IMG/VR virus record: IMGVR_UViG_3300036790_000128
Location: 1-62,294 of that record
DNA length: 62,294 nucleotides
From: a virus
Lineage: Duplodnaviria > Caudoviricetes
Direction: 5' to 3' (one strand)
Positions 5,521 to 46,906 of this stretch are shown here, piece by piece. The notes beneath the pieces are model-generated. The model ran no database searches. It was given only the letters and a program-made list of their open reading frames with translations, and was not told the origin of the DNA. The position numbers and the translations under genes were made by a program. Positions within the stretch are counted from its first letter, which is position 1; each line of letters starts with the position of its first letter.

Positions 5521-5528
5521 GGTCTAGC

Positions 5529-8129: not shown

Positions 8130-8147
8130 CTAGAATCCCTGCCTATC

Positions 8148-8196
8148 GTTGACCGAGTCCGGTGCCAATCCCACGAAGACCCTATCATGACACAAA
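8148..8196 (+). repeat. 49-bp dispersed repeat R2
   Basis: GTTGACCGAGTCCGG-TGCCAA-TCCCACGAAGACCCTATCATGACACAAA. Confidence 0.92.
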
Positions 8197-8208
8197 CCTT
8201 CCTACCAC

Positions 8209-8730
8209 TCAAAACACCGGATACCCATAGAGATAGAAATTACCCAATGCTGCTCCACCCTGCGGGGTTCCCACGTTGAGGTAGAGCGTGCTGAAATTCC
8301 ATATCACCGAGGTATCGGGTGTCAGCACGTCTGTCGTCGCACCGGAAACAACAAAGCCGGTCCCGGTAATTCCCGAGAGAGCCGTTTGCGGTGCCAATGC
8401 CGTTCCCTGCTGAAAGGGGTACGTATAGATTCCGGCCCGAGCCGTATTAAAGCTACCCTGTGTACCAAACACCATCGCCAACGAGACCCGCCATCCGATT
8501 GCCCCAGAGGGCAGCGCCAGAGATATCTGCGTATCCCCAGCCACATTGAAATTGACGTTATCGCTATAGCCGAGCAACAAGAGGCCCGGCGTGATGCCGC
8601 CAAGCCCGAACGCCGCCGTCCAGATTTGCTGCAACAGCGCCAATGAGGCCGGCGTAAGCGTCAGTATCTGCGGATTGAGGAATGGCGCCTGCCCGATCGG
8701 CGGCAGAACGGGAATCTTGGGACCGGCCAT
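8209..8730 (-). CDS. Putative tail/virion protein
   Basis: 173 aa, abuts the gp10-like gene. Confidence 0.55.
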   Translation of the reverse strand: MAGPKIPVLPPIGQAPFLNPQILTLTPASLALLQQIWTAAFGLGGITPGLLLLGYSDNVNFNVAGDTQISLALPSGAIGWRVSLAMVFGTQGSFNTARAGIYTYPFQQGTALAPQTALSGITGTGFVVSGATTDVLTPDTSVIWNFSTLYLNVGTPQGGAALGNFYLYGYPVF

Positions 8731-11469: not shown

Positions 11470-11475
11470 CGGCCT

Positions 11476-12486
11476 TTATCTCTGCGCCTCGTCATAACTC
11501 ATCCCGAAATAGATCGGTTCCGACTCGCGATCGAAGCCCTGCACGAGATCGAGCTTCTTTTCCGATTCCTGCAGGATGATCGCCCATCGCTGCGGCGGAC
11601 AATCGAATTCCGGTCCCATTTCCTTGGCCAGATTCCAGCCGATGGCATTGATCCATTCCTGTGGAAAATCGACCGTGTTGGCAGGTGTGTTGATGTCCAT
11701 CAGCGGCCGATACCAGGTGAATCGTGCGCCGAAATTCGCGTTCTGCGGCGTGAGCCATGCATAGTATTCGCCGGAAACAAGCTGCGGCGAATAAAAGAAC
11801 TGTGTGGTGATGCCGGGATTGAGCGGATTCGGCAGGTCCATGTATTCCTTGCGCGAGAGCACTGACATCGGCGTCAGCCGCGGGCCGTTGTTCTGGCCGC
11901 CCTGATAGTAGATCGTCCTCGAGCGCGGCACCTTCAAAGGCCGCACGATCTTGGTCGCATAGTCGAACACGTTGTTCTGCGCCGATGCGCTCGCGCCAGC
12001 GGGCAACGGAGTTGCAAACGTCACCACATTGTTGACCGGAGCGCCGCTGACCGTGGTCCAGAACGCAGCGCCGCTGTCGAGCACTATCCCAAAATTATCG
12101 CCAGCGTTGACCGTAACCCCATTGTAGTTCGTCGTGCTGTTGACCGTGACGGAGGTCGCCCCCGCCCCGATCGGCGCCGCAACCTGCATCGAGACCCACG
12201 AATTCGCGTCGCAGCAATTGTCAGGCCCGGTCCCGCCCGTCCCCGTCCCGCCGAGCAGATAACGCGCCTGCCCCTGCTGGAAGAACAGGATGGCTTCTTC
12301 CTCGGTCCACACATGAATGCCGGTCGCCATCCATTCCTTGATCATGGCGTTCATCGCCAGGACCGTGTCGGCATACTGACCGGCAGTCGGCGTTTCATCC
12401 TCCGCGATCACGCCAAGCTTGCGCAGCGCCATACTGACGATCGCGGTGGCGGCGGGATTGAACGACGATGTGTTCGACGTTGTCAT
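11476..12486 (-). CDS. Head-tail adaptor (P22 gp4-like)
   Basis: IVSMALRKLGV...LAMNAMIKEW N-terminus; DFPQEWINAIGWNLA C-terminus. Confidence 0.75.
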   Translation of the reverse strand: MTTSNTSSFNPAATAIVSMALRKLGVIAEDETPTAGQYADTVLAMNAMIKEWMATGIHVWTEEEAILFFQQGQARYLLGGTGTGGTGPDNCCDANSWVSMQVAAPIGAGATSVTVNSTTNYNGVTVNAGDNFGIVLDSGAAFWTTVSGAPVNNVVTFATPLPAGASASAQNNVFDYATKIVRPLKVPRSRTIYYQGGQNNGPRLTPMSVLSRKEYMDLPNPLNPGITTQFFYSPQLVSGEYYAWLTPQNANFGARFTWYRPLMDINTPANTVDFPQEWINAIGWNLAKEMGPEFDCPPQRWAIILQESEKKLDLVQGFDRESEPIYFGMSYDEAQR

Positions 12487-12504
12487 CTTTCATCCCAGCA
12501 TTAC

Positions 12505-12553
12505 GTTGACCGAGTCCGGCGCCCATCCCACGAAGGCCCCATCGTGACACACA
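12505..12553 (+). repeat. 49-bp dispersed repeat R3 (unpaired)
   Basis: GTTGACCGAGTCCGG-CGCCCA-TCCCACGAAGGCCCCATCGTGACACACA. Confidence 0.92.
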
Positions 12554-12558
12554 CTGCC

Positions 12559-13038
12559 TTACGGCAACCCCGGCACCGGAGGTGGCGAAGCCTGATAAAG
12601 CGTTACCAGATTCCCTGACGCCATCGTAGAGGGAAGCGGTCGTGAAAGCACAAGATTCGTCCCCACAGGCGCGATAGCAATCGTCGTGAAAAACACTGAG
12701 CCGCCATCCAGATCGGTCATGCAGCCGACCTTCGCTCCCTGGTAAAATCCGAAGATAGTCTGAACGGGAATCGCCGTCTGACCAACTACGGCATTTGCAG
12801 TCGTCTGCGTGCTGATCGGACCGACGTAGACGTTTGCGCCCAAGGGACGTGGATCTGGAACAGATTGAATGTCTGGGACGCCCTTGACCAAATCCTGAGG
12901 CTGGCGAGGCTCCCAGCGCGCCTCATCTACAATCAGGCCGGTCCATTCCTTGCGGGTGCGCTCTGCCCTTTGGGGAAAACCTGTTCGATCATCGGTTCTG
13001 TAGAACGAACCGCGGAGGTAGCGGAGTTTGCGGCCCAT
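12559..13038 (-). CDS. Conserved phage structural-region protein
   Basis: DDRTGF...RKEWTGLIV...WEPRQPQD motif seen upstream of adaptor genes. Confidence 0.65.
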   Translation of the reverse strand: MGRKLRYLRGSFYRTDDRTGFPQRAERTRKEWTGLIVDEARWEPRQPQDLVKGVPDIQSVPDPRPLGANVYVGPISTQTTANAVVGQTAIPVQTIFGFYQGAKVGCMTDLDGGSVFFTTIAIAPVGTNLVLSRPLPSTMASGNLVTLYQASPPPVPGLP

Positions 13039-13086
13039 TAGTTTTCCACATTAGCAGCAGGCTACCGCAGCGCTCAACACAAAACT

Positions 13087-13680
13087 TTAATTGCTTTCGT
13101 ATGTACCACTGATAATCAATAAGTCGCTACCTGTCGGATTGCCTAACGCCGCTAAGAACACACGAAATGTCGTAGCGTTGGAACCAAGAGCCGTGTCAAG
13201 TCCAGCGCCGCTAGCGCCATCCTGGCCGGAGAAAGCATAGAAAACATTTGATAATGTCAACGCCGCAACAGGTAGCGTACCAATGGTAATCGTCCCTGAG
13301 CAGGTGCCAATGGCTGCTTGAACAACAGTAGTAAACCATACTGTTTTGCCAAGAACCTTATATCGACCGATCTGAATTGAGTAAGCGCCAACAGCTCCCG
13401 TGCCGCAGGTGATCGTCGGTGAGAATGTTGACCACGCTGTTAGCGATAATCCTGTAACGGCACCGGCCGTTAGCCCGCTAGCCGTGCCCGTAAGATTGGT
13501 TCCAACGCCAGCCGAAGGCGTGCCGAGATCACCCGCACCTTGTAGGCACGTCCCAGTCGTCGTACCGAACGCAGGGCATGGCGGATACGGCCCAACCGGC
13601 TGCCCTTGCTGCGCCTGCGCAAAAACAAACAAACCGCAGCAGAACAGAGCAACGGAAAGAACCCCAGCAACGAATCTCAT
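13087..13680 (-). CDS. Signal-peptide-bearing protein with tail-fibre-tip-like C-terminus
   Basis: MRFVAGVLSVALFCCGLFVFAQA; WSTFSPT...GRYKVLGKTV...ISGTYE. Confidence 0.6.
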   Translation of the reverse strand: MRFVAGVLSVALFCCGLFVFAQAQQGQPVGPYPPCPAFGTTTGTCLQGAGDLGTPSAGVGTNLTGTASGLTAGAVTGLSLTAWSTFSPTITCGTGAVGAYSIQIGRYKVLGKTVWFTTVVQAAIGTCSGTITIGTLPVAALTLSNVFYAFSGQDGASGAGLDTALGSNATTFRVFLAALGNPTGSDLLIISGTYESN

Positions 13681-14273
13681 TTGAAATCACCGCTGATAAA
13701 GGCATGAGTCGATGCGGTCTTCGTAAAGCACCCCGTAGTCGATGCACCAATGGTGATTCCCGTCGCAAAAGCCACAGGAACAGGAAACGCCGCGCTATAG
13801 GACGTCGTCCCCAAAGGCATCGCATAGCATTTGGCTGGCGTTACCCCTCCATCAGTCGGCGCCGAGGTCGCATTGTAGATCATGATCCACCACGCCGCAC
13901 CTGAGAGCGTAGAATCCGCGCTAATGTTGAATGAGTAGAGATTCCCTGCCGATCCTTTGATGATCTGATTGGCACAAAGCGATGAACAGGCCACCGTGGA
14001 AAGCCCGGCTAGCGCCTCGGATGAGGGTGCCGGCACCACACCGTTGCCCGCAGCGATAGTTGGCGTGGTGGGCAATGTTACTGCTCCACCGCCGCCTCCG
14101 CTGCTGTCAACATTGATCGACCCATCCGAATTGACCTTGAGCTGCTGTGTCGGAGTTGTCGAATCGGCAATGAACACCGTGCCGAGATAATTAGTCTGCG
14201 CCGCCCACGCGACAACGCTGGCGCTGATCAGAGCACACCCAGCAGCAATCAAAACGACTTTCCACGTCTTCAT
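13677..14273 (-). CDS. Signal-peptide-bearing putative virion accessory protein
   Basis: MKTWKVVLIAAGCALISASVVAWA; IKGSAGNLYS...PVAFATGIT. Confidence 0.6.
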   Translation of the reverse strand: MKTWKVVLIAAGCALISASVVAWAAQTNYLGTVFIADSTTPTQQLKVNSDGSINVDSSGGGGGAVTLPTTPTIAAGNGVVPAPSSEALAGLSTVACSSLCANQIIKGSAGNLYSFNISADSTLSGAAWWIMIYNATSAPTDGGVTPAKCYAMPLGTTSYSAAFPVPVAFATGITIGASTTGCFTKTASTHAFISGDFK

Positions 14274-16640: not shown

Positions 16641-16682
16641 TTTCAGATGCCCCTAGTCCTAGTAGGTCTTAGTAGAGCCATC

Positions 16683-16731
16683 GTTGACCGAGTCCGGCGC
16701 CAATCCCACGAAGGCCCCATCGTGAAACAAA
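16683..16731 (+). repeat. 49-bp dispersed repeat R5
   Basis: GTTGACCGAGTCCGG-CGCCAA-TCCCACGAAGGCCCCATCGTGAAACAAA. Confidence 0.92.
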
Positions 16732-16773: not shown

Positions 16774-16890
16774 AAGTTTGGTGAAGCGCAGTTACGCGAG
16801 AGAGAGATTAGGACGGAAGGGATGTTGGGTCAATGCCGCTCCAGGCAGTCTCGGGGATAGACGCGGCTTCATCGATCCATGCCTATCGGG

Positions 16891-16919
16891 TTGACACATA
16901 CAAGCCCCTGTGCTAGTGT
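16891..16919 (+). promoter_or_regulatory. Sigma70-like promoter in the IS left end
   Basis: TTGACA-17 nt-TAGTGT. Confidence 0.55.
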
Positions 16920-16943
16920 TTCGTCATTGGGCGATCCCGCCCT

Positions 16944-17183
16944 TTGATGGAGAGTGTGATGAAAAAGCCGCGAAAAATGACCTGCTACGTTGGCCGAAGC
17001 CCCGATGGTGTGCGCCGTCTTTTTGCGCAGGATCAGGACCCGGCGCGCGCGATGGCAGACGCCTTTGATGCCGCCCGCGAATACATCAAAGGGCGACCGG
17101 ATTGCGCGCCGCTGGCAAACTGGAGCTTCGATCTGGCGAGCATTCCAGACATGAAGGCCGTGATGTACGGGCAGGAGGGCTGA
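16944..17183 (+). CDS. IS passenger hypothetical protein
   Basis: 79-aa ORF inside the IS, same strand as the transposase. Confidence 0.6.
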   Translation: MMESVMKKPRKMTCYVGRSPDGVRRLFAQDQDPARAMADAFDAAREYIKGRPDCAPLANWSFDLASIPDMKAVMYGQEG

Positions 17184-17186
17184 GCC

Positions 17187-17459
17187 ATGGCCCGCGAAAT
17201 TGGCATGAACTGCTGGCCTTACGGCAACCCGCGTGGGTGCGATGCCCAATTCAATATCGCGTTGAAACGCGGCGAGCGTCGGGAAGATGCTGACAAGCGC
17301 CTTGAACGCGAAGCTGGCGAAGCGGGTTGGTGCATCGGGCATTATGATGGTCAGGGATTTTACGTGTGCCCCGATCACAAAACCTGCATTTATGACCCGG
17401 TTCCGCTCAATGCAGGCAGAAAACCTATCCGCGTTCGACGCGCGGCGGGGGAGGCGTAA
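17187..17459 (+). CDS. IS passenger hypothetical protein (Cys-containing)
   Basis: 90 aa, RBS GGAGG, abuts the transposase start. Confidence 0.6.
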   Translation: MAREIGMNCWPYGNPRGCDAQFNIALKRGERREDADKRLEREAGEAGWCIGHYDGQGFYVCPDHKTCIYDPVPLNAGRKPIRVRRAAGEA

Positions 17460-18503
17460 ATGCCCCCGCACGCCGACGTGCTGCAATGGGAACATCTGCC
17501 GTTCCCCAAGTCGCTCCGGGACTTTCAGCGGCTGTTCCCGGACGACGCGGCCTGCGCTCGATACCTGGAAGGCGCCAAGTGGCCAAAGGGCTTTGAGTGC
17601 CCGCACTGCCACGAAAAGGGCGAGCCGTTCCGCATGGCGACGCGGACCAGCGTCCTGACCTGCCGCAAATGCCGCAAGCAAACGTCGCTGACGGTTGGGA
17701 CCGTGATGGCCCGGACGCATACGCCCCTGACAACGTGGTTTTGGGGCGCGTATCTGGTCTCGACCGTGACTCCGGGCATATCCGCCGTCCAATTCCAGCG
17801 CCAGCTTGGCCTTACCGTTTACGAGACGGCGTTCGGCATCCTGCACAAGCTCCGCGCTGGCATGGTGCGCCAAGGCCGCGACCGGATCGGCGGCAACCTT
17901 GGCCGTGGCGATCACGTCGAAATTGACGAAACCTGGATTGGCGGCAAGACGCGCGGCGAAGGCCCGGGCACTCACGATATGACGCTGGTCGCTGCCGCGG
18001 TCGAAGTCCGCACGCGCCCGGCCAAGAAGGGCGACAAGCCCGCGCGGCGCGGCGGTCGCTATGCCGGTCGCCTTCGCCTCGAAATCGTGCCAACACGCGG
18101 TGCCAAGTCGCTGTGCGGCTTTGTAGAAGCGGCGGTAGAGCCGGGCGCCATGGTCATCACGGACGCATGGGGCGGCTACAATGGGCTTGGTGCCCTCGGC
18201 TATGACCATCTGCCGGTCGCGCAAGCCGACGATCCCAAGGTGGCCGAAGAGTACCTGCCGATCATCCACCTTGTTTTCAGCAATCTCAAAGCGTGGCTGC
18301 ACGGCACGCATCACGGGGCGATCAGCCCCAAGCATCTGCAAACTTACCTCAATGAGTTCACGTTCCGATTTAACCGGCGCTTCTATCCCTTCAATGCGTT
18401 CCGCTCGTTGCTCGGCATCGGAACGAACGGCGAAGGCCCGACTTACGACGGGCTGTACGACGGAACCTGGAAACACGCGACGATGGAAAGCCATCATGAC
18501 TAA
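17460..18503 (+). CDS. IS1595-family DDE transposase
   Basis: Zn ribbon CPHC...CRKC, VEIDETWIGG, ITDAWGGY, KHLQTYLNEFTFRFNRR. Confidence 0.95.
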   Translation: MPPHADVLQWEHLPFPKSLRDFQRLFPDDAACARYLEGAKWPKGFECPHCHEKGEPFRMATRTSVLTCRKCRKQTSLTVGTVMARTHTPLTTWFWGAYLVSTVTPGISAVQFQRQLGLTVYETAFGILHKLRAGMVRQGRDRIGGNLGRGDHVEIDETWIGGKTRGEGPGTHDMTLVAAAVEVRTRPAKKGDKPARRGGRYAGRLRLEIVPTRGAKSLCGFVEAAVEPGAMVITDAWGGYNGLGALGYDHLPVAQADDPKVAEEYLPIIHLVFSNLKAWLHGTHHGAISPKHLQTYLNEFTFRFNRRFYPFNAFRSLLGIGTNGEGPTYDGLYDGTWKHATMESHHD

Positions 18504-19285
18504 TCAACCCGTGGGGTCTGTATGTTCAAAGCCGATAGGCATGCATCGATCCATACTGCGGTGATTTCATTTGGGGGCAACGGCGTCGCCGCGTGCTTTT
18601 CGAGATAGGCGATGGCTTTCTGTAGTACGCCAGCATCATCATCGGCCCACCCGAGCAGCGCATTGCATCGATGACAGATTAACTCACGCACCTTGCTTGT
18701 GCGATGGTCGTGATCAATGGCGAGGGGACGGATTTGGCCTAGGCGGTCACGCGCGGTTTCTTCGGCACCACAGATCGCGCATTTATCTTCTTGCTGTTGA
18801 CGCATCGCATTATATTGCTCGCGCGAGAGGTTGTATTTTTTTCTCATATCCCAGGTCCGTGTGTACACGCGCTTTTCTTCAAGAGTTCGGTTCTGCTTAC
18901 CGCCGTCGATCGGCTCGCGCCAGACCATGTTATTCTTGGACCAAGGGATTGTTGGATCAGGGCGCCGCAACTGATGGCGGACTGATGGCTGGATACCAAT
19001 GTCTTCAAGGAAGCCTGCAAAATCGTCCCATTTTGGCGGGTATGCTCCACGGGCCCGTGACCGGAGAAGCTTCCAGACATTCTTCAAAGGCGGTTGCGCT
19101 CGTTGGTAGTGAAAGGAACAGAGATTTTTCGCGAACGCATCCTTATCACAGCCGACGACTGAGCATTTTCCCTGGTTGACGACGTTCTTTCGCTCGATTG
19201 TTCCATTGCGCCGGAGCCGCCAATAACACGCCTGACAGAAACCACGCGCAAAGGTCTTATCTGCACCACATCCTGAGCAAGCCAT
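18500..19285 (-). CDS. Endonuclease VII/HNH homing-type endonuclease; 3' end displaced by the IS
   Basis: CAICG...LAIDHDH...VRELICHRCNALLG; the original C-terminus continues at 16877-16808. Confidence 0.88.
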   Translation of the reverse strand: MACSGCGADKTFARGFCQACYWRLRRNGTIERKNVVNQGKCSVVGCDKDAFAKNLCSFHYQRAQPPLKNVWKLLRSRARGAYPPKWDDFAGFLEDIGIQPSVRHQLRRPDPTIPWSKNNMVWREPIDGGKQNRTLEEKRVYTRTWDMRKKYNLSREQYNAMRQQQEDKCAICGAEETARDRLGQIRPLAIDHDHRTSKVRELICHRCNALLGWADDDAGVLQKAIAYLEKHAATPLPPNEITAVWIDACLSALNIQTPRVD

Positions 19286-19425: not shown

Positions 19426-20346
19426 TCATACACCGGGCGTCCCATAGTAGTTTCGCCAGTCGGTGATCCCTGCCGAAAATCGCATATATTGGGCCGCCTT
19501 AGCGTTCTTGGTATCGAATTCATTATCAGTGTCAAAGAGCGGCCGATCTCTCCACATGAACCGCGCCCCGTAAGGGCAGTTGGTGCGGATAAACCACGCC
19601 GTTGCCGACGTGAGGTAGTGGTTGACCATGATCCCCTTCGGGAACATGCCGGTCGCCTTGAGCACGTTGATCGCGTTGTTCGCCGTGTCGTTCTGCAGGA
19701 TAGAATGCAAGATGCGATTGGCATCGAACCAGTTCTGCGGCGCGATGCCGAGCGCTTGAGGAACCAGCGCGATCTTGTTGCCGCGGTAGTCCGACGCCTG
19801 CATGATCTGGATCGAGAGGTCTTCGATCGCCGTCTCCGAGAGGTCCGCGGACGTGGTCAGCAGGTTCGACTGGTTGCCGACGATCGATGGATGCGAAGCG
19901 GAAATTGCCGCCGCGCCGTCGCCGATCGGATAGGAGGTGTTGAATGCTTGGTTGAAGACGTTGGCGCCGATGATTTCCTCGGTCTGCCGGCCGGCGAAGG
20001 CGAGCATGGCGGCGCGTCTTTTCGACACGACTTCGTAGAGGTTGTCGCGCAATTCTTCGAAGGTGACGATGTAGCCGCCGGCGTAGGCGACGTGCGTGTA
20101 GCGGGTGATCGCGCCCTGGACCTCGGTGTCGTAGTTGAGTGCCGCGCCCTGATCCTTTTCACGAAGCACGCCGAAGCCGGAGATTTCGACATCTTCCTCG
20201 TAGGCTTTGTCCGAGGTTTCGACATCGAACCATTCCGGGTATTCCTGCATGTGTTCGGCATATTGCCGTCCCCACCAGGTCTTGATTCCGGGCCATAATG
20301 CTTTCGGGTGGGCTCCAGTAGTGATGACGCCGCCGATGGTAGCCAT
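19426..20346 (-). CDS. Major capsid protein
   Basis: PKALWPGI, SDKAYEED, HYLTSATAWFI and RFSAGITDWR motifs; followed by a terminator. Confidence 0.9.
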   Translation of the reverse strand: MATIGGVITTGAHPKALWPGIKTWWGRQYAEHMQEYPEWFDVETSDKAYEEDVEISGFGVLREKDQGAALNYDTEVQGAITRYTHVAYAGGYIVTFEELRDNLYEVVSKRRAAMLAFAGRQTEEIIGANVFNQAFNTSYPIGDGAAAISASHPSIVGNQSNLLTTSADLSETAIEDLSIQIMQASDYRGNKIALVPQALGIAPQNWFDANRILHSILQNDTANNAINVLKATGMFPKGIMVNHYLTSATAWFIRTNCPYGARFMWRDRPLFDTDNEFDTKNAKAAQYMRFSAGITDWRNYYGTPGV

Positions 20347-21671: not shown

Positions 21672-21720
21672 TTTGTGTCACGATGGGGCCTTCGTGGGAT
21701 GGGCGCCGGACTCGGTCAAC
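21672..21720 (-). repeat. 49-bp dispersed repeat R6 (unpaired)
   Basis: Reverse complement identical to R12. Confidence 0.92.
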
Positions 21721-21730
21721 GGTCGGCTGC

Positions 21731-22840
21731 TTACTGTCGCCCATTGGGCTGACTCCGCTTCTGCTGCTGCAGCGTGATCACGTCGGCATGAGGATCGGCA
21801 TAGAGCGCCATGTATTCAGCTTCGGAGTAATCAGGCAGATTGCGTTTGATGCGATTGTAGGCGTCGCGCGCTTCGGTGCGCTCGGCAGGATCGGCGATGG
21901 AGTTGATCGTTGCGGCTTGACCATTGGACCGCGGCGCCGGGGCGTCTCCGGTGGGCGCGGAAACCGACGCTGCGCGACGCCGGGGCGGGGCTGAGCGTGC
22001 AGCCGGCTCATCGCGGAGCGGGGCGGCACCGAACGCGCGAGGGTATGCATCCATGACACGATCCTTGGCTTCGTCCAGTAGCTCACGATCGAGTGCTGGA
22101 TCGTTGTTGAGCATATCTTGCGTGATGCCGCGCTCGCGCAAGACTTCGTTGTGGTGGGCGATCATTGCGGCATTGAGAACCGGCGTCGAATTGAACCACG
22201 CATTCGAGGCGACGAACTCCTTTATCGGCGTCGATACATTGAGCGGGGCCGTTGCTGTTGGAAGAGGCGGCGCGGCCGTGACCGTGATGCCGGAATCGGT
22301 TGTGATGGCGGTCGTGGCAGGCGTCGCCATGCTGCGGGATTCGCGCAAGGCGTCTTCCTGCTGGTCAAATTGTTGATACGCCTTGGTGTCCCCTGCCTCG
22401 ACGGCAGCGGCTTTCTTTGTCTTGATATCCGCCATCGCCCGATCATAGCCGCGCTGGTCGGCCTTGCGGCCCATATCGCGTAGGTCCTTGATGATCTGTA
22501 GTTGCTCGGTTGACGAGGTGCGTAAGCCACCGACTTCACTCTCAAGCCGATTGACCCGTTCCAGCAGACGACGGTTTTGATCGCGGACGATCGGCAACAC
22601 TTCCTCGCCGCGGCTAATAAATTCAGCGGCAGGTTTCCAGGTTCCGGCACGGCCGCGAAACTCCGCAAGCGGCTTCCAGCCCATCTCGCGAGCGCGAGTT
22701 TCGATGGCAGGATCGGCTCCGTTGCTCGGTGCGGCGTCATCGGCCGCCTCAAGTTCCGGCGTGGCCGCATCGATTGCCGCGTCGTCGAGCTCGGCGCCGC
22801 TCATCTGCGGGATGCTGGATTCAACTGTGGTGCCTGCCAT
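21731..22840 (-). CDS. Scaffolding protein
   Basis: AREMGWKP...WKPAAEFI, coiled coil, FVASNAWF; true start probably ATG 22840 after RBS AAGGA. Confidence 0.78.
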   Translation of the reverse strand: MAGTTVESSIPQMSGAELDDAAIDAATPELEAADDAAPSNGADPAIETRAREMGWKPLAEFRGRAGTWKPAAEFISRGEEVLPIVRDQNRRLLERVNRLESEVGGLRTSSTEQLQIIKDLRDMGRKADQRGYDRAMADIKTKKAAAVEAGDTKAYQQFDQQEDALRESRSMATPATTAITTDSGITVTAAPPLPTATAPLNVSTPIKEFVASNAWFNSTPVLNAAMIAHHNEVLRERGITQDMLNNDPALDRELLDEAKDRVMDAYPRAFGAAPLRDEPAARSAPPRRRAASVSAPTGDAPAPRSNGQAATINSIADPAERTEARDAYNRIKRNLPDYSEAEYMALYADPHADVITLQQQKRSQPNGRQ

Positions 22841-22851
22841 GGGTTTTCCTT

Positions 22852-23436
22852 CATGCTTATCCGGTTTAGACACACAGCCCTACATCTTGTGTTTGCTGTT
22901 TTGCGCGTAGCTCGGCGCGAATTTCCATCCAAAGCTGGCCGAGCATATTCTTGCCGTCGTGGCTTGGCCCCCAACCCCAAAAGGCGTCGCGCCAGCTATC
23001 CTCGATTAGTTCGCGTCCGCTGGTCGCCAAGAGCTTGCGGCGCACGTATTCGTGCTGTTCGGCCTTAGAGCGAAGAATGTCTCGCATAATGCTAACGCGA
23101 ACCGCATTCCAGTCCGGTCTACGCCTATCCGCAGATGCTTCCGCAATCTTAAAGGCGTCATGGGCAGACGATGCGCGCCGTATCGCGTAGCAAATATCGC
23201 ATTCGTGGCCCGCTGGGACATCCTGCTCATTCTTGTGGGCGAATTTTTCCCAATGATACGCCGCCTCCGACGTGTCGAAGCGCCAGCCCTTCCATTGGAG
23301 GGTAAAGGCAGAGAAATTTGACAGGACGTAAAAGTCCTGCTCGTAGAAAAAGACCTGCGTTTCGGTGTCGAGTTTGTGCGTTTCGATCAACATCTAGTAG
23401 CTCTCACCGTTTGAGTGTGGCAACCGGATAAGCATG
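22852..23436 (-). mobile_element. Non-autonomous IS1595-type cassette carrying NADAR
   Basis: TIRs CATGCTTATCCGGTT at both ends; 8-bp TSD TTTTCCTT at 22844-22851 and 23437-23444. Confidence 0.88.
22866..23393 (-). CDS. NADAR (YbiA-like) family protein
   Basis: LSNFS, TSEAAYHWEKF, RPDWNAVR, KAEQH...LLAT, EDSWRDAFWG, GKNMLGQLWMEIR. Confidence 0.92.
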   Translation of the reverse strand: MLIETHKLDTETQVFFYEQDFYVLSNFSAFTLQWKGWRFDTSEAAYHWEKFAHKNEQDVPAGHECDICYAIRRASSAHDAFKIAEASADRRRPDWNAVRVSIMRDILRSKAEQHEYVRRKLLATSGRELIEDSWRDAFWGWGPSHDGKNMLGQLWMEIRAELRAKQQTQDVGLCV

Positions 23437-23448
23437 TTTTCCTTCGCC

Positions 23449-23919
23449 CTATTTCGGTAGAACAACGGCTGGGGCGCGACCATTCGTTGAGACGTGGAAC
23501 GCCGTTGCGCCCTCCACAACATCCGATTCCGCCGCAGCTCCCTTCTCATACGTCGCACCGATCGCGCCGTAATCCATCATCCGATAGACCTTGCCATCAC
23601 GGCCGGTCACTTGCCGTCCCGCGTATTTCTCGATGAAGACGTAATCGCCCGGCTTCGGCTTTTCGCCGGTCCATGGGGTACAGTCTTCGTTGATCAGGAA
23701 GGCGCCGGGCGCACATGCCACGAGGACGCCGGTATCGGATGCGGCATTGAGTTGTTCTTCCTTGCCGGGATCGAACTCGATTCCGCCAGCGCTTCGCACG
23801 CATTTGTCCGTGAGTATCAGGACGGTCTTGCCGACGAGCCGGATACCGCTGGTGTCGGTTCCATTCCACTCTTCGGAGCGGTACTCGACGTTAATTCCGT
23901 TGATGAAGCGAATCGTCAA
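23449..23919 (-). CDS. GroES-like co-chaperonin
   Basis: GKTVLI...SAGGI...TGVLVA...KPGDYVFIEKYAG...DGKVYRMM. Confidence 0.75.
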   Translation of the reverse strand: MTIRFINGINVEYRSEEWNGTDTSGIRLVGKTVLILTDKCVRSAGGIEFDPGKEEQLNAASDTGVLVACAPGAFLINEDCTPWTGEKPKPGDYVFIEKYAGRQVTGRDGKVYRMMDYGAIGATYEKGAAAESDVVEGATAFHVSTNGRAPAVVLPK

Positions 23920-24196
23920 GTGTTTCCTCCACTTCCTGATTCCTGTAGAAATTCTGTATATGTTCGAGCTTAAGGGTATGCAACTCGCGGAGCGTCAGAA
24001 TGCGTCCTCGTAAGACCTCAGCCTGTGGATTGTCGATTCCGTTCTCAACCATATCGGCGGCGGCAGTTCTGAACGATTCGATCAGATCGTTCAAATAGGA
24101 CAGATAGGCTGACGTGATCGGATGGTGCTTCCATTGCCCGAAAGATTGCTCGGATAGTTCGAGCAGCAGGGTTTCGTGCGGGGGCTTCTGGGTCAT
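23891..24196 (-). CDS. Hypothetical head-region protein
   Basis: 101 aa, FGQWKHHPIT motif, overlaps its neighbours. Confidence 0.6.
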   Translation of the reverse strand: MTQKPPHETLLLELSEQSFGQWKHHPITSAYLSYLNDLIESFRTAAADMVENGIDNPQAEVLRGRILTLRELHTLKLEHIQNFYRNQEVEETLDDSLHQRN

Positions 24197-25572
24197 TGGG
24201 ACCTCGCCGCGAACGGATCATGATCGACGGGCTGGGTGGCAAAGTGCGACGCGCCGCCTGCGATCAGGCCAGCAAGGCCATATTTCTTGATGATGTCTAT
24301 GATCTTATCATCAAACACGACGTAGTTGCTGGTCGGCTTTGGCGCAGATTCATACGCCGCCCGAGCCGCAGCTTCGTCCGCCCCGCGATAATAGACTTGA
24401 CCATTTGGCATCTGCTTAACTAGCCATTGACCGTGCACAGTGTCCTTTGGTGACAGTATCTGTACCGGGGGGCCGCGCGATCCTTGATCTAGGTATTTGA
24501 TGCCGGGGATGCCTGCTTGGCGAAGCACTTCGGTAGCTTGGCTTTTGTCGCCGCTCGGCATGATGTAGTTTAAGGCCTGCTGACCATTCGTGTTTACTGA
24601 AAGTACGTCCTCGATCTTATCTTCTGGCCATTTACGCCGTGTTAGATTGTCCAAAAACGCCTGCCGCACGGAAGGACTTTGTTCGCTCATCGGCTTATCC
24701 CAATCAAGGAAACGCTCGGGATCGGCGTTGATGGAGACTTGGTAGGTCTTGCCACCAGCGTTCGTTATGTCCGCATCGCGAAATTGTTGTACTTGTTGGC
24801 GAACAGCGCTCGAAACATCTGGCGGCAAGCCCCGCTGCACTTTTGCAAAGTGCGAGTCATTAAGATCAAGGGCCATCATCGCGTCTTGATAGCGGTCAGA
24901 TGCCGTAGGTGAGCGAGACGACGCAAGATAACGTGCTGCTGTGGCCTCAATATTGTCTGCTGGCGGATTACCATTTATTAGATATTCAGGGCCGCCCAAC
25001 GCTTCTTTATATGCGTGCGCCGTCGCCGGATTCTCCGCGAAATAAAGCCCATGGCCATAAGCCTGTGCGCCTTCGCCCGTCCCGATCTTCGACAGATCGA
25101 ACTTGTCGAAATCGTAGGGACTGCCGTGATAGGCCGTAATGCCTTTGGCGACGGCTTCGGCTCCCGCCTCCAATGGCGCAGCCTCTTCCGCTTCCGGAGC
25201 CGCAACCCCAAGCATCACGCCGCCAGCGACTTGCGGAATATCCCTTGGGTCAACATGGCCCGTCCGCAGCATGTCACCCACGGTCATGCCTGCCTCGCCA
25301 ATCGGGCCTAGCGCACCGATGGTCATATCCGCCGCACGTTGCGGAAACCCCGCGACTTGTTCGGCAACACTCGGCTGAGCGACCGTCTGCCCTGACTTGG
25401 CGACGACGCCTTCTGCCGGCGCCTTGCTGACGCTGATCTCCGGTCGCCCCGTCGCTGGATTGACGTAAGGCGCCCATGGATCATGATCGACCGGCTGTAA
25501 TGTCACGCCGTCCGGCACCACTGGCTGCGGCGCGTTTGCAAACGGATCATGATCGACCGGAACCAAATCCAT
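24193..25572 (-). CDS. Accessory protein with ADP-ribosyltransferase-like (ART-PolyVal-like) domain
   Basis: AYHGSPYDFDKFD...GTGEGAQAYGHGLYFAE, GIPGIKYLD, NYVVFDD; three PVDHDP(F/W)A motifs. Confidence 0.65.
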   Translation of the reverse strand: MDLVPVDHDPFANAPQPVVPDGVTLQPVDHDPWAPYVNPATGRPEISVSKAPAEGVVAKSGQTVAQPSVAEQVAGFPQRAADMTIGALGPIGEAGMTVGDMLRTGHVDPRDIPQVAGGVMLGVAAPEAEEAAPLEAGAEAVAKGITAYHGSPYDFDKFDLSKIGTGEGAQAYGHGLYFAENPATAHAYKEALGGPEYLINGNPPADNIEATAARYLASSRSPTASDRYQDAMMALDLNDSHFAKVQRGLPPDVSSAVRQQVQQFRDADITNAGGKTYQVSINADPERFLDWDKPMSEQSPSVRQAFLDNLTRRKWPEDKIEDVLSVNTNGQQALNYIMPSGDKSQATEVLRQAGIPGIKYLDQGSRGPPVQILSPKDTVHGQWLVKQMPNGQVYYRGADEAAARAAYESAPKPTSNYVVFDDKIIDIIKKYGLAGLIAGGASHFATQPVDHDPFAARSQ

Positions 25573-28103
25573 CAGTGCAAGACCTGCAGGTATTTTCCGG
25601 GGCGGCGGGGATCGGGCAAGTAGTGGTTGCCATCGGGTGCCTGTGTAGCACCGATGCTCGCGGGATTAAAGCCGCTATTGCCATTGAGACCGGGCACGCT
25701 GGGCGTTGGCGGCAGCGGCGGCAAGCCAGGGCCAGATGCAGGTCCACCAGGCGAAGGCGGTGGCGGCGCACCTGCGGCCGGAGGCGCGGTCGGTCCTGGA
25801 GGCATCTGCGGAAATGGCACATTCGCCCCGCTGTTGGGCGGCGGTTGTGACGTGATGTTGGTCGCGCCGGCCGCAATATCCGCCCGCGTCTTGGCCGCAT
25901 TGATCGCAAGCCCAACGGCGGCATGATGATGTTTGCCCTCGACATCGGCAGCGCGAACCTGTGTGTTCTGTGCCTCGATGTGCAGCTCCATCACCCGCAA
26001 CTGCGCATTGATCCAATCCATCTGCGGCCCGGACGCCTTTGAGGCCGCCATCGCCATGTTCAGATACGCCTGCGAATTGTCTTTCAGTTCGGCGGCCCGT
26101 AGCCTGCCAAGTTCGGCCTGCTTTTCCTCCATCGCCATAGCGGCGAGTTGCTGGGTGATCTGCGGATTCGGCGGCGGTGCAAATACATCTTCGACGCGAT
26201 CAATCTGCGCCGCGTCGAACATACGCTGATAGATTTCCTTTTTGTTCAGCAGCGGATCGTCCTTGACCTGAAACAGAATCTGGGAGCGTCCCAGCTTCTG
26301 CATATCCGTGATCATCGTCGGATCGGCGATCGGCTCCACACCGCCGCCCATGCGATAATCGTCCGGCTGGACCTCGCGCCATTCGTCACCAACGCGGTAT
26401 CGGCGTTGTTCGTCTTTCAAGTAAATCCGGTTCAGCCGATAGATTTTATTGAACTCGGCCTTGAGTGCCCGATAGACGCGCTTATGGATGGCCGTATAGA
26501 CCTTCAAGCCCTGCTCAATCAGCGCCAGCACAGTCGTCGGCGGCGCATTGGCAATCTGCGCATCGCCCGCCAGAATATCCTTGACGGCGGCGGTTTCCTT
26601 GCCGGAGTTCAGCAACAAGCCAAGCAACTGGAACAAGACCGGAGAAGGCCCCGGAAATGGAATCGGGAACACCGAGTCCCTGATCGACTGCCCCTTCGAC
26701 CCGACGCGCACATACTTGCCGACCTGAAAATTGACCGGGCCGGAATGTATCGACAACTGATCCGACACGAAGCCACCGCCGGCGTTCTGCAGGTGGCCGG
26801 CATCGAACATCTGATTGAGCGTGGTGTTGATCGCTTCATTGAGCGGGCGCAGCAGATGACCGAACCCGACCGGATAGGAACCGCCATCGGGATTCGGCAG
26901 AAACGGGATCAGCGTGTAGTGATCGACCGGCGTGACTTTGAGGATTTCTTCGCGGTCCTTGTCATCACCATCGGTCAAACCGCCTTCATCATCCTCGTCA
27001 ACATCAGGGCCTTTGCCCGTGATGATGCTTTCCTCATCGTAACGCGCGACGACGCGAACGACTTTCGATGACCGCTTGTGAACTGTAACGACGTAGGGCT
27101 CGGGATAGCCGTCGCCGTCGAGATCGTAGCGGCGATGCTGTTCCAGAAAGACATGCGGCGCGTCTTCGTCGCCTGAATCGGACTGCCCTTCTTCGCCGCC
27201 TCTTTCGTCGCCACCACCCGGACCATAGGACAACGGAAGATAGACCTCGGCACGCTCGTATTCCTCGACCTGATGCGGATAGAGCGTAAGGATTTCCGTA
27301 TGACGCGGCGCGGCTTCGAATGACGGCGCGTGATAATTCCAGACAAGATTCTTGAGCGACACCAGCAACGAGCAGTTTTTTTCTTCGACCGGATCACGGA
27401 AAGTCTTGCGCGCCGCACCGCCCATGATAGGGATTTGCATCAAAAGCGTGTCAGTCTGACCTTCCCATTCCTGCATTTCCTCCAACAACTGCCAGCTCAT
27501 ATGCTCGCCGATGCGGTCGGCGCGCTTGCGCTTGTCGCCCGGAGCAGACAGCCATATCGGGGAGTTGTCCGCCGGATGCAGTTTCGGCTTGCCGTCCGGC
27601 TTGCCATCCTCGGTCGCCGGCGTTCCCTTGTCGGTTCCCCAGACGACGCCCTTGACGACATTACGATTCTGGATGATCGCCGGATAGGTCCGCGCATTAA
27701 ACTGGATCGCCGCATCGGTGATCAGCGGATAGATGATGTTGGAACTCTTCGGCCACGGATATTGTTTTTCTTCCGCCTCCTGCAGACAGAACTTCATCGC
27801 CTTTTCGGCTTTGCTCCACCATTCGGAACGCGAGTTGTCATCGATCATGAATTCAGAGACGACAAGCGCGCCAAGGGTATCGAGCACGTCCGGCGCGTAA
27901 TCTTCGGCCAAATTCACCTTGTCGATCTGGCTGATCAGAAAATCCTTGATCGGGGTGTCTTTGCTGCGGCCGTAATTGCCGTCACTTTCCGAATCACGCT
28001 CCGGCTCGCTCGCTGCAGTCACAGCATCGGGCTCCATTGGCTCTGCGGGCGCAGACGGCGATGGAGCAAGTGAAGCAGCACCGAGCGAGGATGTGATAGG
28101 CAT
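25572..28103 (-). CDS. Portal protein
   Basis: 843 aa; PWPKSSNIIYPLITDAAIQFNAR, GFGHLL, NQMFDAG, TTVLALIEQG. Confidence 0.9.
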   Translation of the reverse strand: MPITSSLGAASLAPSPSAPAEPMEPDAVTAASEPERDSESDGNYGRSKDTPIKDFLISQIDKVNLAEDYAPDVLDTLGALVVSEFMIDDNSRSEWWSKAEKAMKFCLQEAEEKQYPWPKSSNIIYPLITDAAIQFNARTYPAIIQNRNVVKGVVWGTDKGTPATEDGKPDGKPKLHPADNSPIWLSAPGDKRKRADRIGEHMSWQLLEEMQEWEGQTDTLLMQIPIMGGAARKTFRDPVEEKNCSLLVSLKNLVWNYHAPSFEAAPRHTEILTLYPHQVEEYERAEVYLPLSYGPGGGDERGGEEGQSDSGDEDAPHVFLEQHRRYDLDGDGYPEPYVVTVHKRSSKVVRVVARYDEESIITGKGPDVDEDDEGGLTDGDDKDREEILKVTPVDHYTLIPFLPNPDGGSYPVGFGHLLRPLNEAINTTLNQMFDAGHLQNAGGGFVSDQLSIHSGPVNFQVGKYVRVGSKGQSIRDSVFPIPFPGPSPVLFQLLGLLLNSGKETAAVKDILAGDAQIANAPPTTVLALIEQGLKVYTAIHKRVYRALKAEFNKIYRLNRIYLKDEQRRYRVGDEWREVQPDDYRMGGGVEPIADPTMITDMQKLGRSQILFQVKDDPLLNKKEIYQRMFDAAQIDRVEDVFAPPPNPQITQQLAAMAMEEKQAELGRLRAAELKDNSQAYLNMAMAASKASGPQMDWINAQLRVMELHIEAQNTQVRAADVEGKHHHAAVGLAINAAKTRADIAAGATNITSQPPPNSGANVPFPQMPPGPTAPPAAGAPPPPSPGGPASGPGLPPLPPTPSVPGLNGNSGFNPASIGATQAPDGNHYLPDPRRPGKYLQVLH

Positions 28104-36957: not shown

Positions 36958-38004
36958 TTAGGTTTGTTTCACGATGGGGCCTTCGTGGGATGGGCGCCGG
37001 ACTCGGTCAACCGAGGCTGCGGCGATGAATTCTGCGGCGACTTGCGGGACGATCGCATTGCCGTAGGCGCGCAAGCGTCCCACTCTGCCGGGTATCCCAT
37101 GAGCCAGCGGGAATGTGCCGGGTTCAACTGGCCGCGCTTTTCCATCTGTGCAGGGGAGCCATTCGCTAGCCTGCCAATGGCCTCCAATCCTTTCGCTGAT
37201 TGATGCTTCGGATTCGTACTCGCTCCGCGAGGGCCGTGCGGTCCGCTCATTGTGTCCGGTGTCGGCCATCCCGCCAGGAGCGCAAAGTCCTGTAGGTTCG
37301 ATCCGTGGCGTGTCTCGCCCGCTGCCCGCTTCGCTTGACCACCCCTGTCGCTGTCGTGAACTGTCGGAGTCGGCCAGGTCGCCAGTTGCGCTGCGTGAGA
37401 TAAATGCGTCGCTGGCGTCGCGCCCATCTTCGAGCCGTTCGCGATTGCTTTCAGCTTGCGAGCGTGTGCCATTTCGGGGGTGCCACCCGGCTCGTTCGCC
37501 GCTGGCGTCGGCCACGAACCAAAGTCGGTTTCTGATATGCGGCGCGCCGACGCCGCAAGCTGGCAATACGGACGCCCCGCAGGCGTAGCCCGCTGCTTCC
37601 AGGTCAGAGAAAACAGCGTCGAGCCAACCCCATCCAATTGCCGCTTCAACCTGCTCTCCAAAGACGATTGGAGGGCGGCGCTCGGCGATGAGAGGAAACC
37701 ACGCAGGCCACAAGTGGCGTTTGTCATCGGCCGCCTTGCCCGCTCCGGCTGCGGAGAAGGGTTGGCAGGGACAAGAGCCTGTCCAAACAGATCGGTTGTC
37801 GGTCCATCCGACGAGTCTGAGGGCAAGCGACCATCCTCCGATTCCTGCAAAAAAGTGACATTGGCTGTAGCCGATGAGATCGTCCGGCTTCACATCAACG
37901 ATGCTTCGTTCGTCAACATCCCCCGGCGCGATATGGCCCGCAGCAATGAGGTTGCGCAGCCACTGGGCGGCATAGGGATCAATCTCGTTGTAATAGGCCG
38001 CCAC
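36958..38004 (-). CDS. DNA cytosine-C5 methyltransferase, alpha chain
   Basis: FFAGIGGW, GSCPCQPFS, EQV, GAPHIRNRLW and LRAYGNAIVP motifs. Confidence 0.92.
   Translation of the reverse strand: MAAYYNEIDPYAAQWLRNLIAAGHIAPGDVDERSIVDVKPDDLIGYSQCHFFAGIGGWSLALRLVGWTDNRSVWTGSCPCQPFSAAGAGKAADDKRHLWPAWFPLIAERRPPIVFGEQVEAAIGWGWLDAVFSDLEAAGYACGASVLPACGVGAPHIRNRLWFVADASGERAGWHPRNGTRSQAESNRERLEDGRDASDAFISRSATGDLADSDSSRQRQGWSSEAGSGRDTPRIEPTGLCAPGGMADTGHNERTARPSRSEYESEASISERIGGHWQASEWLPCTDGKARPVEPGTFPLAHGIPGRVGRLRAYGNAIVPQVAAEFIAAASVDRVRRPSHEGPIVKQT
36963..37011 (-). repeat. 49-bp dispersed repeat R7
   Basis: Reverse complement GTTGACCGAGTCCGG-CGCCCA-TCCCACGAAGGCCCCATCGTGAAACAAA. Confidence 0.92.
36969..37850 (-). 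CDS. Alternative-frame beta chain of the C5 methyltransferase (start uncertain)
   Basis: Nested ORF with three WPTP repeats and GQLNPAHSRWLMGYP (motif IX-like). Confidence 0.7.
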   Translation of the reverse strand: MQESEDGRLPSDSSDGPTTDLFGQALVPANPSPQPERARRPMTNATCGLRGFLSSPSAALQSSLESRLKRQLDGVGSTLFSLTWKQRATPAGRPYCQLAASARRISETDFGSWPTPAANEPGGTPEMAHARKLKAIANGSKMGATPATHLSHAAQLATWPTPTVHDSDRGGQAKRAAGETRHGSNLQDFALLAGWPTPDTMSGPHGPRGASTNPKHQSAKGLEAIGRLANGSPAQMEKRGQLNPAHSRWLMGYPAEWDACAPTAMRSSRKSPQNSSPQPRLTESGAHPTKAPS

Positions 38005-46190: not shown

Positions 46191-46906
46191 CATGCTTACC
46201 CGGTTGCCACACACAAACGCTGAGACCTACTAGATGTTGACGAGAGACGAACGGCTGCAAGCCGTCAAATTCCAAGATGCCATCGGCGAAGTTGTCGATG
46301 TGTATCTACGCGAAGGCATGGACCCGGACCTCATTGCCGAGGTCCTGAAAGACGAGGCCGCCAGCGATCTACGCATGCGCCGCCTGGAATTGGAGGACGC
46401 GAAATGAGCAGATTTGGCATCGTCGCCACGCTCAAGCGCGGCATTCCCGTTCGGGGGGCTTTCTTGTGCCCGCTATGTGGGGGCGATGGAGAGATTGACC
46501 CCGTTGAATTCTCTGCCGCTGACCCAAACCCTCACAAGGACGTGTGTTGCGAATGCGGCGGCCAAGGATGGCTGCCAGACGATTGTGAGGATTGAATGAG
46601 CCCGCTCAAATGCCCCGGCGTTGGCCGCGACAAAGACTGCATCAGCGCGTTGCAGTTCTATTTTAGCCGTCGCGTTAGCGACGACGAAATGCGCTTTCTC
46701 CACGAAGTGATGCAGCGATCCGTCGCTTGTATGCCGCGACTCAGCGATCTGGTGCGCCGCCACGACTGTCCAGGTCATGTCGCATCTGAAGACGATCCGA
46801 AGGTTTGTGACAGGTGCGGTACGCACATTGATGAACTTCGGCCGCCCGATGGGGATGGACCATGACCACAACATCTAGGGCTGTGTGTCTAAACCGGATA
46901 AGCATG
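46191..46906 (+). mobile_element. Non-autonomous IS1595-type cassette with three small ORFs
   Basis: TIRs CATGCTTA(C/T)CCGGTT; 8-bp TSD GGTCTTTC at 46183-46190 and 46907-46914; ORFs 46234..46407, 46404..46595, 46596..46865. Confidence 0.88.

Follow-up and report, generated by a model that had tools for sequence, protein, structure and literature searches.

Gene exchange among phages is usually ascribed to recombination and homing endonucleases, and insertion sequences (ISs) are generally held to be rare in phage genomes. Mobile insertion cassettes (MICs) consist of IS ends around one or more passenger genes without a transposase, and their mobilisation in trans by a related IS is presumed; MIC231 presumably derives from an IS231/IS4-type element. 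The mycobacteriophage mobile elements (MPMEs) are ultra-small (~440 bp), have short inverted repeats and are polymorphic among otherwise similar phage genomes; as far as is known, they all carry one same small open reading frame (ORF) of their own and no exchangeable cargo and are not IS1595 derivatives. An 8-bp target-site duplication is a trait of the IS1595 family. Its subgroups and passenger genes were reportedly treated by Siguier et al. in 2009 (Res Microbiol). The accessible text of PMC3913671 and PMC2600179 names MIC231 of Bacillus cereus and the qnrD and qnrS2 MICs, and that of PMC3029335 and PMC5356059 deals with MPME1 and MPME2. Here we analyse a complete virus record of 62,294 bp (IMGVR_UViG_3300036790_000128, "the window"), which carries at 22852..23436 an element of 585 bp encoding a NADAR protein. 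This NADAR cassette is very probably a recently inserted and still-mobile non-autonomous IS1595 derivative, a mobile insertion cassette with about 100 sisters.

The NADAR cassette and its empty sites

Reading of the sequence from 22600 to 23700 gave the element the same boundaries as an earlier sequence-only reading of this DNA. Its parts are as follows.

22844..22851, no strand: target-site duplication, copy beside the downstream gene; the minus strand reads AAGGAAAA, the ribosome-binding site (RBS) of the 369-aa gene
22852..22893, minus strand: conserved cassette 3' end, ~42 nt, with the terminal inverted repeat (TIR) at 22852-22866 and stop codons in three frames
22866..23393, minus strand: NADAR gene, 175 aa, YbiA subfamily; it runs into the conserved 3' end for its last ~8 residues
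23386..23436, minus strand: conserved cassette 5' end, ~51 nt, with the TIR at 23422-23436, a GAGAG Shine-Dalgarno-like stretch and the start codon in box CTAGATGTTGA
23437..23444, no strand: target-site duplication, second copy (sequence reading, repeat search)

The TIRs are perfect over 15 bp, with CATGCTTATCCGGTT at 22852-22866 and its exact reverse complement at 23422-23436; beyond the 15 bp the inverted repeat is imperfect and reaches 25 nt at 84% (repeat search). The 8-bp target duplication, TTTTCCTT, lies directly outside both TIRs, at 22844-22851 and 23437-23444. Around the cassette the identical direct repeat is 10 nt long (GTTTTCCTTC), since it also covers a base from each of the TIRs; this single copy would allow any duplication length from 8 to 10 bp, and we give it as 8 bp because other family members settle the boundary. 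Allowing up to three mismatches, the TIR 15-mer occurs eight times in the window (1.38 expected), a number reached in none of 100 shuffles, and six of the eight occurrences are the ends of three elements. The sole long ORF in the cassette is the NADAR gene (22866..23393, minus strand, 175 aa), and ORF and Pfam searches of the 585 bp found this passenger gene and no transposase. The name miniature inverted-repeat transposable element (MITE), which in its strict sense means a short non-coding element, was rejected since the NADAR ORF fills the cassette. The perfect TIRs, the 8-bp duplication, the length and the lack of a transposase, all claimed in the sequence-only reading, are thus borne out by the sequence, repeats and ORFs, and its assignment to a non-autonomous IS1595-type cassette is supported by the 8-bp duplication and by ends shared with an autonomous IS1595 element (L018:2423-4390, described below; contigs from the surveys are given by such handles).

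To check its claim, the sequence-only reading had pointed to empty sites in related phages. Among the isolated phages of INPHARED, no match was found for 21700-24600 (blastn). The stretch 22300-24000 is partly present in 19 public runs other than the probable source, and four of these, from four studies (X2, X4, X5 and X7), were examined as assembled contigs, which report presence and not frequency. Each of the four runs contains one contig in which 22842 is followed directly by 23436, so that 593 bases (585 + 8) are skipped. At these junctions nine letters can be assigned to either side, and the shorter sides measure 119, 21, 55 and 255 nt; X7 record 27, for example, is a contig of 762 nt made of 22458-22842 and 23436-23812. 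The relatives are 95-98% identical to the window around the site and have no cassette. A second X7 contig, record 28, agrees with 23225-23436 except at one position and then continues into 82 nt of foreign flank; it represents the same NADAR cassette at another place. Loose contig ends in other metagenomes diverge at 22890-22895 (3' end) and at 23386-23387 (5' end), and the NADAR-specific junction 22-mer had no match in the metagenome contigs. Because precise empty sites, with 593 bases skipped, are present in four public metagenomes, the NADAR cassette appears to be mobile.

The cassette is also missing at greater distance. NADAR was found at this locus in none of the 27 viral contigs that encode a relative of the gene downstream of the cassette, and in at least six relatives (L089, L096, L098, L101, L102 and L104) the GroES-like gene that lies upstream is directly followed by the RBS and start codon of the next gene. 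In such distant relatives the empty site is syntenic and no more than that. L088, which among the assembled relatives is the closest (94-96% nucleotide identity), was considered as a clean empty site and rejected, as a different 99-aa ORF occupies the spot.

The two genes on either side of the insertion are the following.

21731..22840, minus strand: downstream gene, 369 aa, called "scaffold" by position; its RBS is kept after the insertion
23449..23919, minus strand: upstream gene, with a weak likeness to GroES/Cpn10; it ends 5 nt ahead of the duplication copy

On the minus strand, the left copy of the duplication reads AAGGAAAA-CCC-ATG ahead of the 369-aa gene, which starts at 22840. The stop codon of the upstream gene (23449-23451) is followed by GGGCG and then by the other copy. 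Both neighbours are intact because the duplication regenerates the AAGGAAAA RBS and the upstream stop precedes it, a finding that agrees with the earlier proposal of a transposition at the RBS that duplicated it and left the operon whole. The 369-aa protein had no match in Pfam, PHROGs (even at E 0.1) or NCBIfam, and the label "scaffold" comes only from its position between the portal (25572..28103) and capsid (19426..20346) genes. The spacer that took the cassette varies among relatives and is 20-80 nt long in some. At L088:318-617 and in L091, L092 and L095, the GroES-like gene is separated from the scaffold-like one by 300-480 nt of unrelated sequence that lacks the cassette repeats; in L088 this sequence is the 99-aa ORF.

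A family of cassettes with shared ends

The exact 22-mers of both cassette ends were scanned against IMG/VR viral contigs, metagenome contigs and the genomes of 185,579 species (one genome each). IMG/VR contigs gave 43 and 59 matching stretches, metagenome contigs 87 and the species genomes only six. All six are in metagenome-assembled genomes (MAGs), five of them from Alphaproteobacteria (including Hyphomicrobiales, Xanthobacteraceae, Pseudolabrys and Rhodoplanes) and one from Verrucomicrobiota; one MAG stretch, L116, is identical to a viral contig. The host phages probably infect Hyphomicrobiales. When an element was defined by paired ends with at most two mismatches and counted independently of strand, 101 distinct elements with the same ends were obtained from the viral and metagenome contigs. 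Ninety-eight of these are 282-1183 bp long (median 530), and 61 of the 98 have a perfect 8-bp duplication; the other three are 1968-2253 bp long, two with a perfect duplication. Over all 101 elements, 62 different duplication sequences were counted, and the GC content of the duplications is 0.27 as compared with 0.58 for the flanks.

In the water runs X2, X4 and X5, the cassette ends are covered to a summed depth of 4,000-13,800, compared with 0 to about 200 for flanks and cargo, so that the ends exceed the flanking phage sequence 100- to 1000-fold in abundance in these three metagenomes. For the soil run X7 the corresponding value at the ends is only about 6 to 14. Many metagenome contigs hold both cassette ends around other cargo. 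Cassettes with related cargo lie at different sites and have different duplications, as do E09 and E10, which are 98% identical. For the NADAR cassettes E34 and E36, the ends are 92% and 95% identical whereas the cargo is only 73% identical, and the ends are more conserved than the cargo in every pair of cassettes with related cargo. This conservation of ends above cargo indicates long-standing selection on the ends and, with it, continued mobility. A test of whether insertions avoid ORFs was set aside as a weak signal: an ORF of at least 300 nt spans 61% of in-silico empty sites versus 87% of random sites (n=33), and spurious ORFs are common at 58% GC. Two 3'-type cassette ends enclose a 357-aa TnpB-like ORF at L063:3703-4850, where a matching duplication is lacking; this may be a separate element that settled between two cassettes.

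Alignment of the oriented copies showed that all of them share almost the same sequence over their first ~51 nt and over their last ~42 nt. The two ends form long imperfect inverted repeats made up of the terminal 15-mer, a GTGTGTG tract and an inner box, CTAGATGTTG versus CAACATCTAG. The 5' end carries a GAGA(C/G) stretch and an ATG at position 44, where the first ORF starts in 34 of 76 oriented cassettes; in others, GGAG or GAGG and a start codon come slightly further in. The start codon of the NADAR gene is likewise at element position 44, inside box CTAGATGTTGA. The 3' end holds TGA, TAG and TAA, one in each frame, and one of these three stops closes the last ORF in 49 of 76 cassettes; its distance to the end of the element is 41 nt in 19 of the 76, 14 nt in 17 and 28 nt in 13. 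The NADAR ORF continues into the conserved 3' end as far as the TAA, 14 nt short of the end of the element, and its last residues are therefore encoded by the end itself. A scan that is blind to phage-specific promoters found no sigma-70-like promoter in 22500-23800, and no promoter or terminator was detectable in the cassette. By a crude strand call from GC3-weighted ORFs, the flanking coding strand is the cargo strand in 33 of 46 upstream flanks (p = 0.0045) and in 33 of 42 downstream flanks (p = 0.00027). Such signals and such an orientation would be expected of modules that use operon transcription and spare their neighbours. Two variants of the inner box were seen at the 3' end, CAAGATGTAG and CAACATCTAG, which differ by an inversion of the four bases at its centre (22877-22886 and 46872-46881, for example).

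Candidate partners that encode a transposase were found among the longer elements. The 1968-bp element L018:2423-4390 has the exact 15-bp repeats of the cassettes at both ends and a perfect duplication, and it encodes a 124-aa passenger and a 349-aa IS1595 transposase (NF033547, 8.8e-56) that is 75% identical to the transposase of the window (17460-18503). Another autonomous member, L060:261-2384, has three passengers. The layout of the autonomous elements is 5' end, passengers, transposase and 3' end, and the cassettes look like this frame without the transposase. The window itself holds two further elements of interest.

16878..18543, plus strand: resident autonomous IS1595-family element, 1666 bp, with ends CATGCCTATCGGGTT and CATGCCTATCGGCTT
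46191..46906, plus strand: second non-autonomous cassette, 716 bp, with the same ends and one mismatch in the left repeat

The resident IS is flanked by the 8-bp duplication CATCGATC at 16870-16877 and 18544-18551 and contains passenger ORFs at 16959-17183 and 17187-17459, followed by the transposase gene at 17460-18503. The 347-aa transposase matches DDE_Tnp_IS1595 (1e-31), the IS1595 zinc ribbon (2.9e-12) and NCBIfam NF033547 (3.7e-51, above cut-off). Its left end (16878-16892) matches the cassette TIR at 13 of 15 positions, exactly as had been noticed from the letters alone, and its right end (18529-18543) at 12 of 15. The second cassette, which was absent from the sequence-only reading, is flanked by GGTCTTTC at 46183-46190 and 46907-46914 and contains ORFs at 46234-46407, 46404-46595 and 46596-46865, one of them with CxxCxGxG-type cysteine motifs. 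The passenger ORFs of the second cassette and the resident IS had only chance-level matches in PHROGs.

Several smaller observations concern these two elements and their surroundings. The IS sits at the 3' end of an HNH/EndoVII gene (18500-19285, minus strand), as the stop codon of this gene is inside the IS right end. L088 has no IS at this site, its flanks being ~107 bp apart, and the region is too diverged for a clean junction; a transposase fragment with 78% identity lies elsewhere in that contig (L088:5429-5714). Upstream of the second cassette, a 71-aa ORF (46025-46240), if real, has its C-terminus changed by the insertion. A dispersed intergenic repeat of ~48 nt that starts with GTTGACCGAGTCCGG occurs on both strands in at least 13 places of the window (16676-16731, 36959-37020, 52318-52377, 44507-44555, 58273-58330, 8148-8204 and 12505-12551 among them) and also at L088:1739-1805; it looks like a phage promoter or operator.

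The cargo of the family is diverse. About 80 cargo ORFs were clustered by blastp and almost all are singletons. Pfam matches to DNA-modification families comprise Dam, MT-A70 (2), N6_N4_Mtase and Mom, together with C5 DNA methylase, for which three cargo scans gave four matches, one of them counted twice. Other Pfam matches are UPF0020, NADAR (2), PAPS_reduct (2, one weak), YAcAr, crAss001_48 (2) and Multiubiquitin, with a few domains of unknown function and a weak radical-SAM match as minor ones. In PHROGs the cargo matches many DNA-methyltransferase families, PAPS reductase (8.8e-49), Mom-like proteins and radical SAM. There is no nuclease gene among the genes inside the cassettes. Since the recognisable cargo consists mainly of DNA-modification enzymes, DNA methyltransferases above all, the most likely role of the family is to carry accessory and counter-defence genes from phage to phage. 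The DDE-based route for delivering counter-defence genes that the sequence-only reading had suggested gains in generality from the sister cassettes, about 100 in number, and from this recognisable cargo. A side observation concerns the source of cargo: the paralogous window genes at 7500-8129 and 55698-56420 (both minus strand) share a 66-aa stretch (58-64%) with the cargo of L118:3849-4709, a cassette in a Rhodoplanes MAG contig, which is another sign of cargo taken from the phage gene pool.

The NADAR protein and rival explanations

The NADAR protein matches PF08719 with an E value of 2.5e-25 over profile positions 1-163 of 163. It scores 91.5 bits against TIGR02464 (ribofla_fusion, YbiA), above the cut-off of 73.7, and 67.9 bits against NF053876 ("NADAR family anti-phage protein"), below the cut-off of 240. 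The best solved relatives are E. coli YbiA (8.2e-18) and then P. nicotianae NADAR (2.1e-08), and no structure of a DarT1-linked NADAR matched at E <= 0.01. Residues E43, K50, W95, R99, E131, D136 and W139 align with the ADP-ribose-binding and catalytic residues named in the accessible part of PMC11543638, and the active site is intact. In the alignment to 8bau, E131 aligns with P. nicotianae E125, D136 with D130 and W139 with W133, given a presumed 2-residue offset between the chain and the numbering of that paper. According to the same part of PMC11543638, Glu is the marker of the YbiA subfamily at this position; the corresponding residue is Asp in DarT1-linked NADARs and His in those of T4-like phages. 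On the basis of Glu131 and a TIGR02464 score above cut-off, the protein is assigned to the YbiA subfamily. Membership in the DarT1-associated antitoxin group DarG1/BC4488 was rejected, as the residue is Glu and not Asp and the neighbours are phage morphogenesis genes; by the marker residue given in that source, the T4-like AdfN-T4/gp30.3 group was rejected too, with Glu131 in place of His.

This assignment lends weight to the best of the rival explanations, in which the cassette is mobile and its NADAR serves metabolism and not counter-defence, as an N-glycosidase of the YbiA type that removes reactive intermediates of the riboflavin pathway. The TIGR02464 score, E. coli YbiA as the best solved relative and the YbiA-type Glu at 131 are what it would predict, and in the portion of PMC11125620 available E. 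coli YbiA failed to protect cells from DarT1, a result that also weighs against counter-defence by our protein. The same portion reports, however, that all NADAR and YbiA proteins tried hydrolysed guanosine-ADP-ribose in vitro, with protection of cells from DarT1 by some only, and that a myxobacterial YbiA-like protein is the antitoxin of an ADP-ribosyltransferase (ART) toxin. Divergent phage NADARs outside the T4 group neutralise DarT1 and counter DarTG1, as far as the accessible text of PMC11825919 goes. Moreover, the sister cassettes carry DNA-modification genes and not metabolic genes, and no riboflavin genes were noticed in the window, where no systematic search for them was made. A metabolic role is thus unlikely, though it deserves to be taken seriously. 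The activity of the protein is most likely the removal of ADP-ribose from a nucleobase, as judged from the aligned residues, and an anti-DarT role is plausible. The sequence-only reading had cited the removal of ADP-ribose from guanine by some NADARs (DarT1 antitoxins) and had held that clustering with, and acting only as, a riboflavin-pathway YbiA would speak against its claim; the protein does cluster with YbiA (91.5 bits, Glu131), so the claim is weakened on that part.

Further points bear on where the gene came from and how it would serve. Of 48 viral NADAR relatives, 47 are ordinary resident genes without these ends; the sole relative with cassette ends is a sister cassette, L122 = L023, in another phage and at another site. 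The closest relative, L121 (81% amino acid identity), is itself an ordinary resident gene, and its DNA similarity stops inside the coding region. From these comparisons it follows that the NADAR cargo was drawn from the phage gene pool. NADAR lies in the structural operon, which is presumably late, and not where an early counter-defence gene would be expected.

The second rival gives the position of the gene a meaning: the NADAR would be the antidote or partner of the phage's own ART-PolyVal protein. This 459-aa protein (24193-25572, minus strand) is encoded two genes upstream of the cassette in the same operon, its ART-PolyVal domain match (E 1.2e-06) is just under the Pfam cut-off, and toxin-antitoxin pairs of an ART with a YbiA-like protein exist in the available text of PMC11125620. 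We regard such a partnership as quite improbable, given that the insertion is recent, with relatives 95-98% identical around the site and lacking the cassette; that the sister NADAR cassette L023 is in another phage at another site; and that the family as a whole seems to insert opportunistically. In the 27 relatives, the 4 kb upstream contained no homologue of the ART, and the two genes are therefore not conserved partners.

The mobility of the cassette has also to be weighed. Against a recently inserted and still-mobile element stand the resident IS ends, which match the cassette ends at only 13 and 12 of 15 positions, so that this genome may lack the cognate transposase; the 47 of 48 viral relatives that reside in phages without these ends; the 37 of 98 short elements without a perfect duplication, some of which are probably recombinants between copies or products of mis-paired ends; and L088, which offers no clean empty site, its homology to the window breaking at the cassette edge. 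The act of transposition itself is unobserved, the empty sites being a presence/absence polymorphism with an exact insertion footprint. The crude flank strand call tempers the orientation result, and only about 16 of 110 cargo proteins match Pfam at E <= 0.001, most of the cargo being unnamed; the word "counter-defence" therefore rests on the annotated minority. The lack of a transposase in the element, the differing ends of the resident IS and the normally resident state of NADAR genes would all fit a dead relic, an IS1595 copy that lost its transposase by deletion, kept or gained NADAR and is now fixed and immobile. Such a relic is very improbable in view of the perfect repeats and duplication, the precise empty sites in four of four runs, the near-identical NADAR cassette end in a different flank (X7), the 61 sisters with perfect duplications, the 62 duplication sequences over 101 elements and the ends that are far more conserved than the cargo. 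Movement by homing or homologous recombination with the ends as homology arms, instead of by DDE transposition, might draw on the ~95% identity of ends between cassettes with unrelated cargo, which could support cargo swaps, on the 37 of 98 short elements without a perfect duplication, as expected after recombination between copies, and on the HNH/EndoVII gene beside the window IS, but it is hardly credible: the 62 different 8-bp duplications, AT-rich and located at unrelated sites, are the mark that staggered-cut transposition leaves, IS1595 transposases are encoded by the partner elements, and the cassettes contain no nuclease gene.

Comparison with known systems

The favoured reading of the NADAR cassette as a mobile IS1595 derivative implies the following course of events. 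An IS1595-type DDE transposase with an N-terminal zinc ribbon would be supplied in trans by an autonomous partner in the same or a co-infecting phage and would recognise the 15-bp terminal repeats together with the conserved subterminal ~50 nt and ~42 nt. The cassette would be inserted into an AT-rich 8-bp target, which is duplicated, and, when placed between co-directional phage genes, would be expressed from the operon transcript with its neighbours unbroken, because it brings its own Shine-Dalgarno-like stretch, start codon and three-frame stops. In a wider reading, held tentatively and with nearly as much belief as doubt, the cassettes would form an integron-like phage system in Alphaproteobacteria of soil, peat and freshwater, in which hundreds of standardised, promoter-less and translation-ready modules, moved by a few autonomous IS1595 elements into the intergenic spacers of whatever phage co-infects, rapidly reshuffle DNA-modification and other counter-defence genes (methyltransferases, Mom, PAPS-reductase-like enzymes and NADAR). 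It is the sharply fixed cargo boundaries that would call, in this wider reading, for a dedicated way of loading new genes between the ends.

The sequence-only reading is right as to structure and understates the case; counter-defence fits the recognisable cargo, and this particular NADAR classifies, as far as profile and marker residue tell, with YbiA. The locus shows a route by which a phage acquires a NADAR enzyme. More broadly, a DDE-transposon family would have spawned a swarm of tiny cassettes that insert between phage genes without harm, with about 100 payloads sampled here. If the payloads are counter-defence genes, the conserved ends would provide a cheap bioinformatic hook for new anti-defence genes among the unannotated cargo and a natural, compact means of gene delivery into phage genomes, testable with two proteins and a 100-nt pair of ends.

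Several described systems share some of these properties. AdfN, in the accessible text of PMC11825919, is like the window NADAR an orphan phage NADAR gene, and such phage NADARs, divergent and of several origins, remove ADP-ribose from guanine in DNA and defeat DarTG1; by the marker residue taken from the accessible part of PMC11543638, the window NADAR differs from AdfN-T4 in its YbiA subfamily (Glu131), and it also differs in its arrival on a transposable cassette. Integron cassettes resemble the phage cassettes in being promoter-less and mostly single-gene, with standard ends, diverse cargo, an outside promoter and shuffling. The integron mechanism is unrelated, however, with attC sites, a tyrosine-recombinase integrase, attI and stacking at one site, whereas the dispersed insertion, 8-bp duplications and inverted repeats of the phage cassettes point to DDE transposition, and the likeness is therefore one of analogy only. 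The MPMEs have in common with the cassettes a tiny size, short inverted repeats and polymorphic presence, and differ in having no diverse accessory payload.

The closest systems are the IS1595 elements and the MICs. IS1595 ISs in general, like the window IS, L018 and L060, have a DDE transposase with an N-terminal zinc ribbon (PF12762, PF12760 and NF033547) and 8-bp duplications, and in the autonomous copies passenger ORFs precede the transposase gene. In our search of open-access text, outside which lay ISfinder, subscription papers and supplements, no description was found of a swarm of transposase-less single-gene IS1595 derivatives in phages. MICs and the phage family are alike in that IS-type TIRs flank passengers, that a transposase is lacking and that the target is duplicated. 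Known MICs, however, are few, lie on bacterial chromosomes and plasmids and belong to other IS families, whereas about 100 cargoes were sampled in the phage family, which unlike MICs has standardised translation signals (start at position 44, three-frame stops). The family is thus apparently a large, undescribed swarm of IS1595-derived mobile insertion cassettes in phages, distinguished by the phage setting, the standardised translation signals and a very high cargo diversity.

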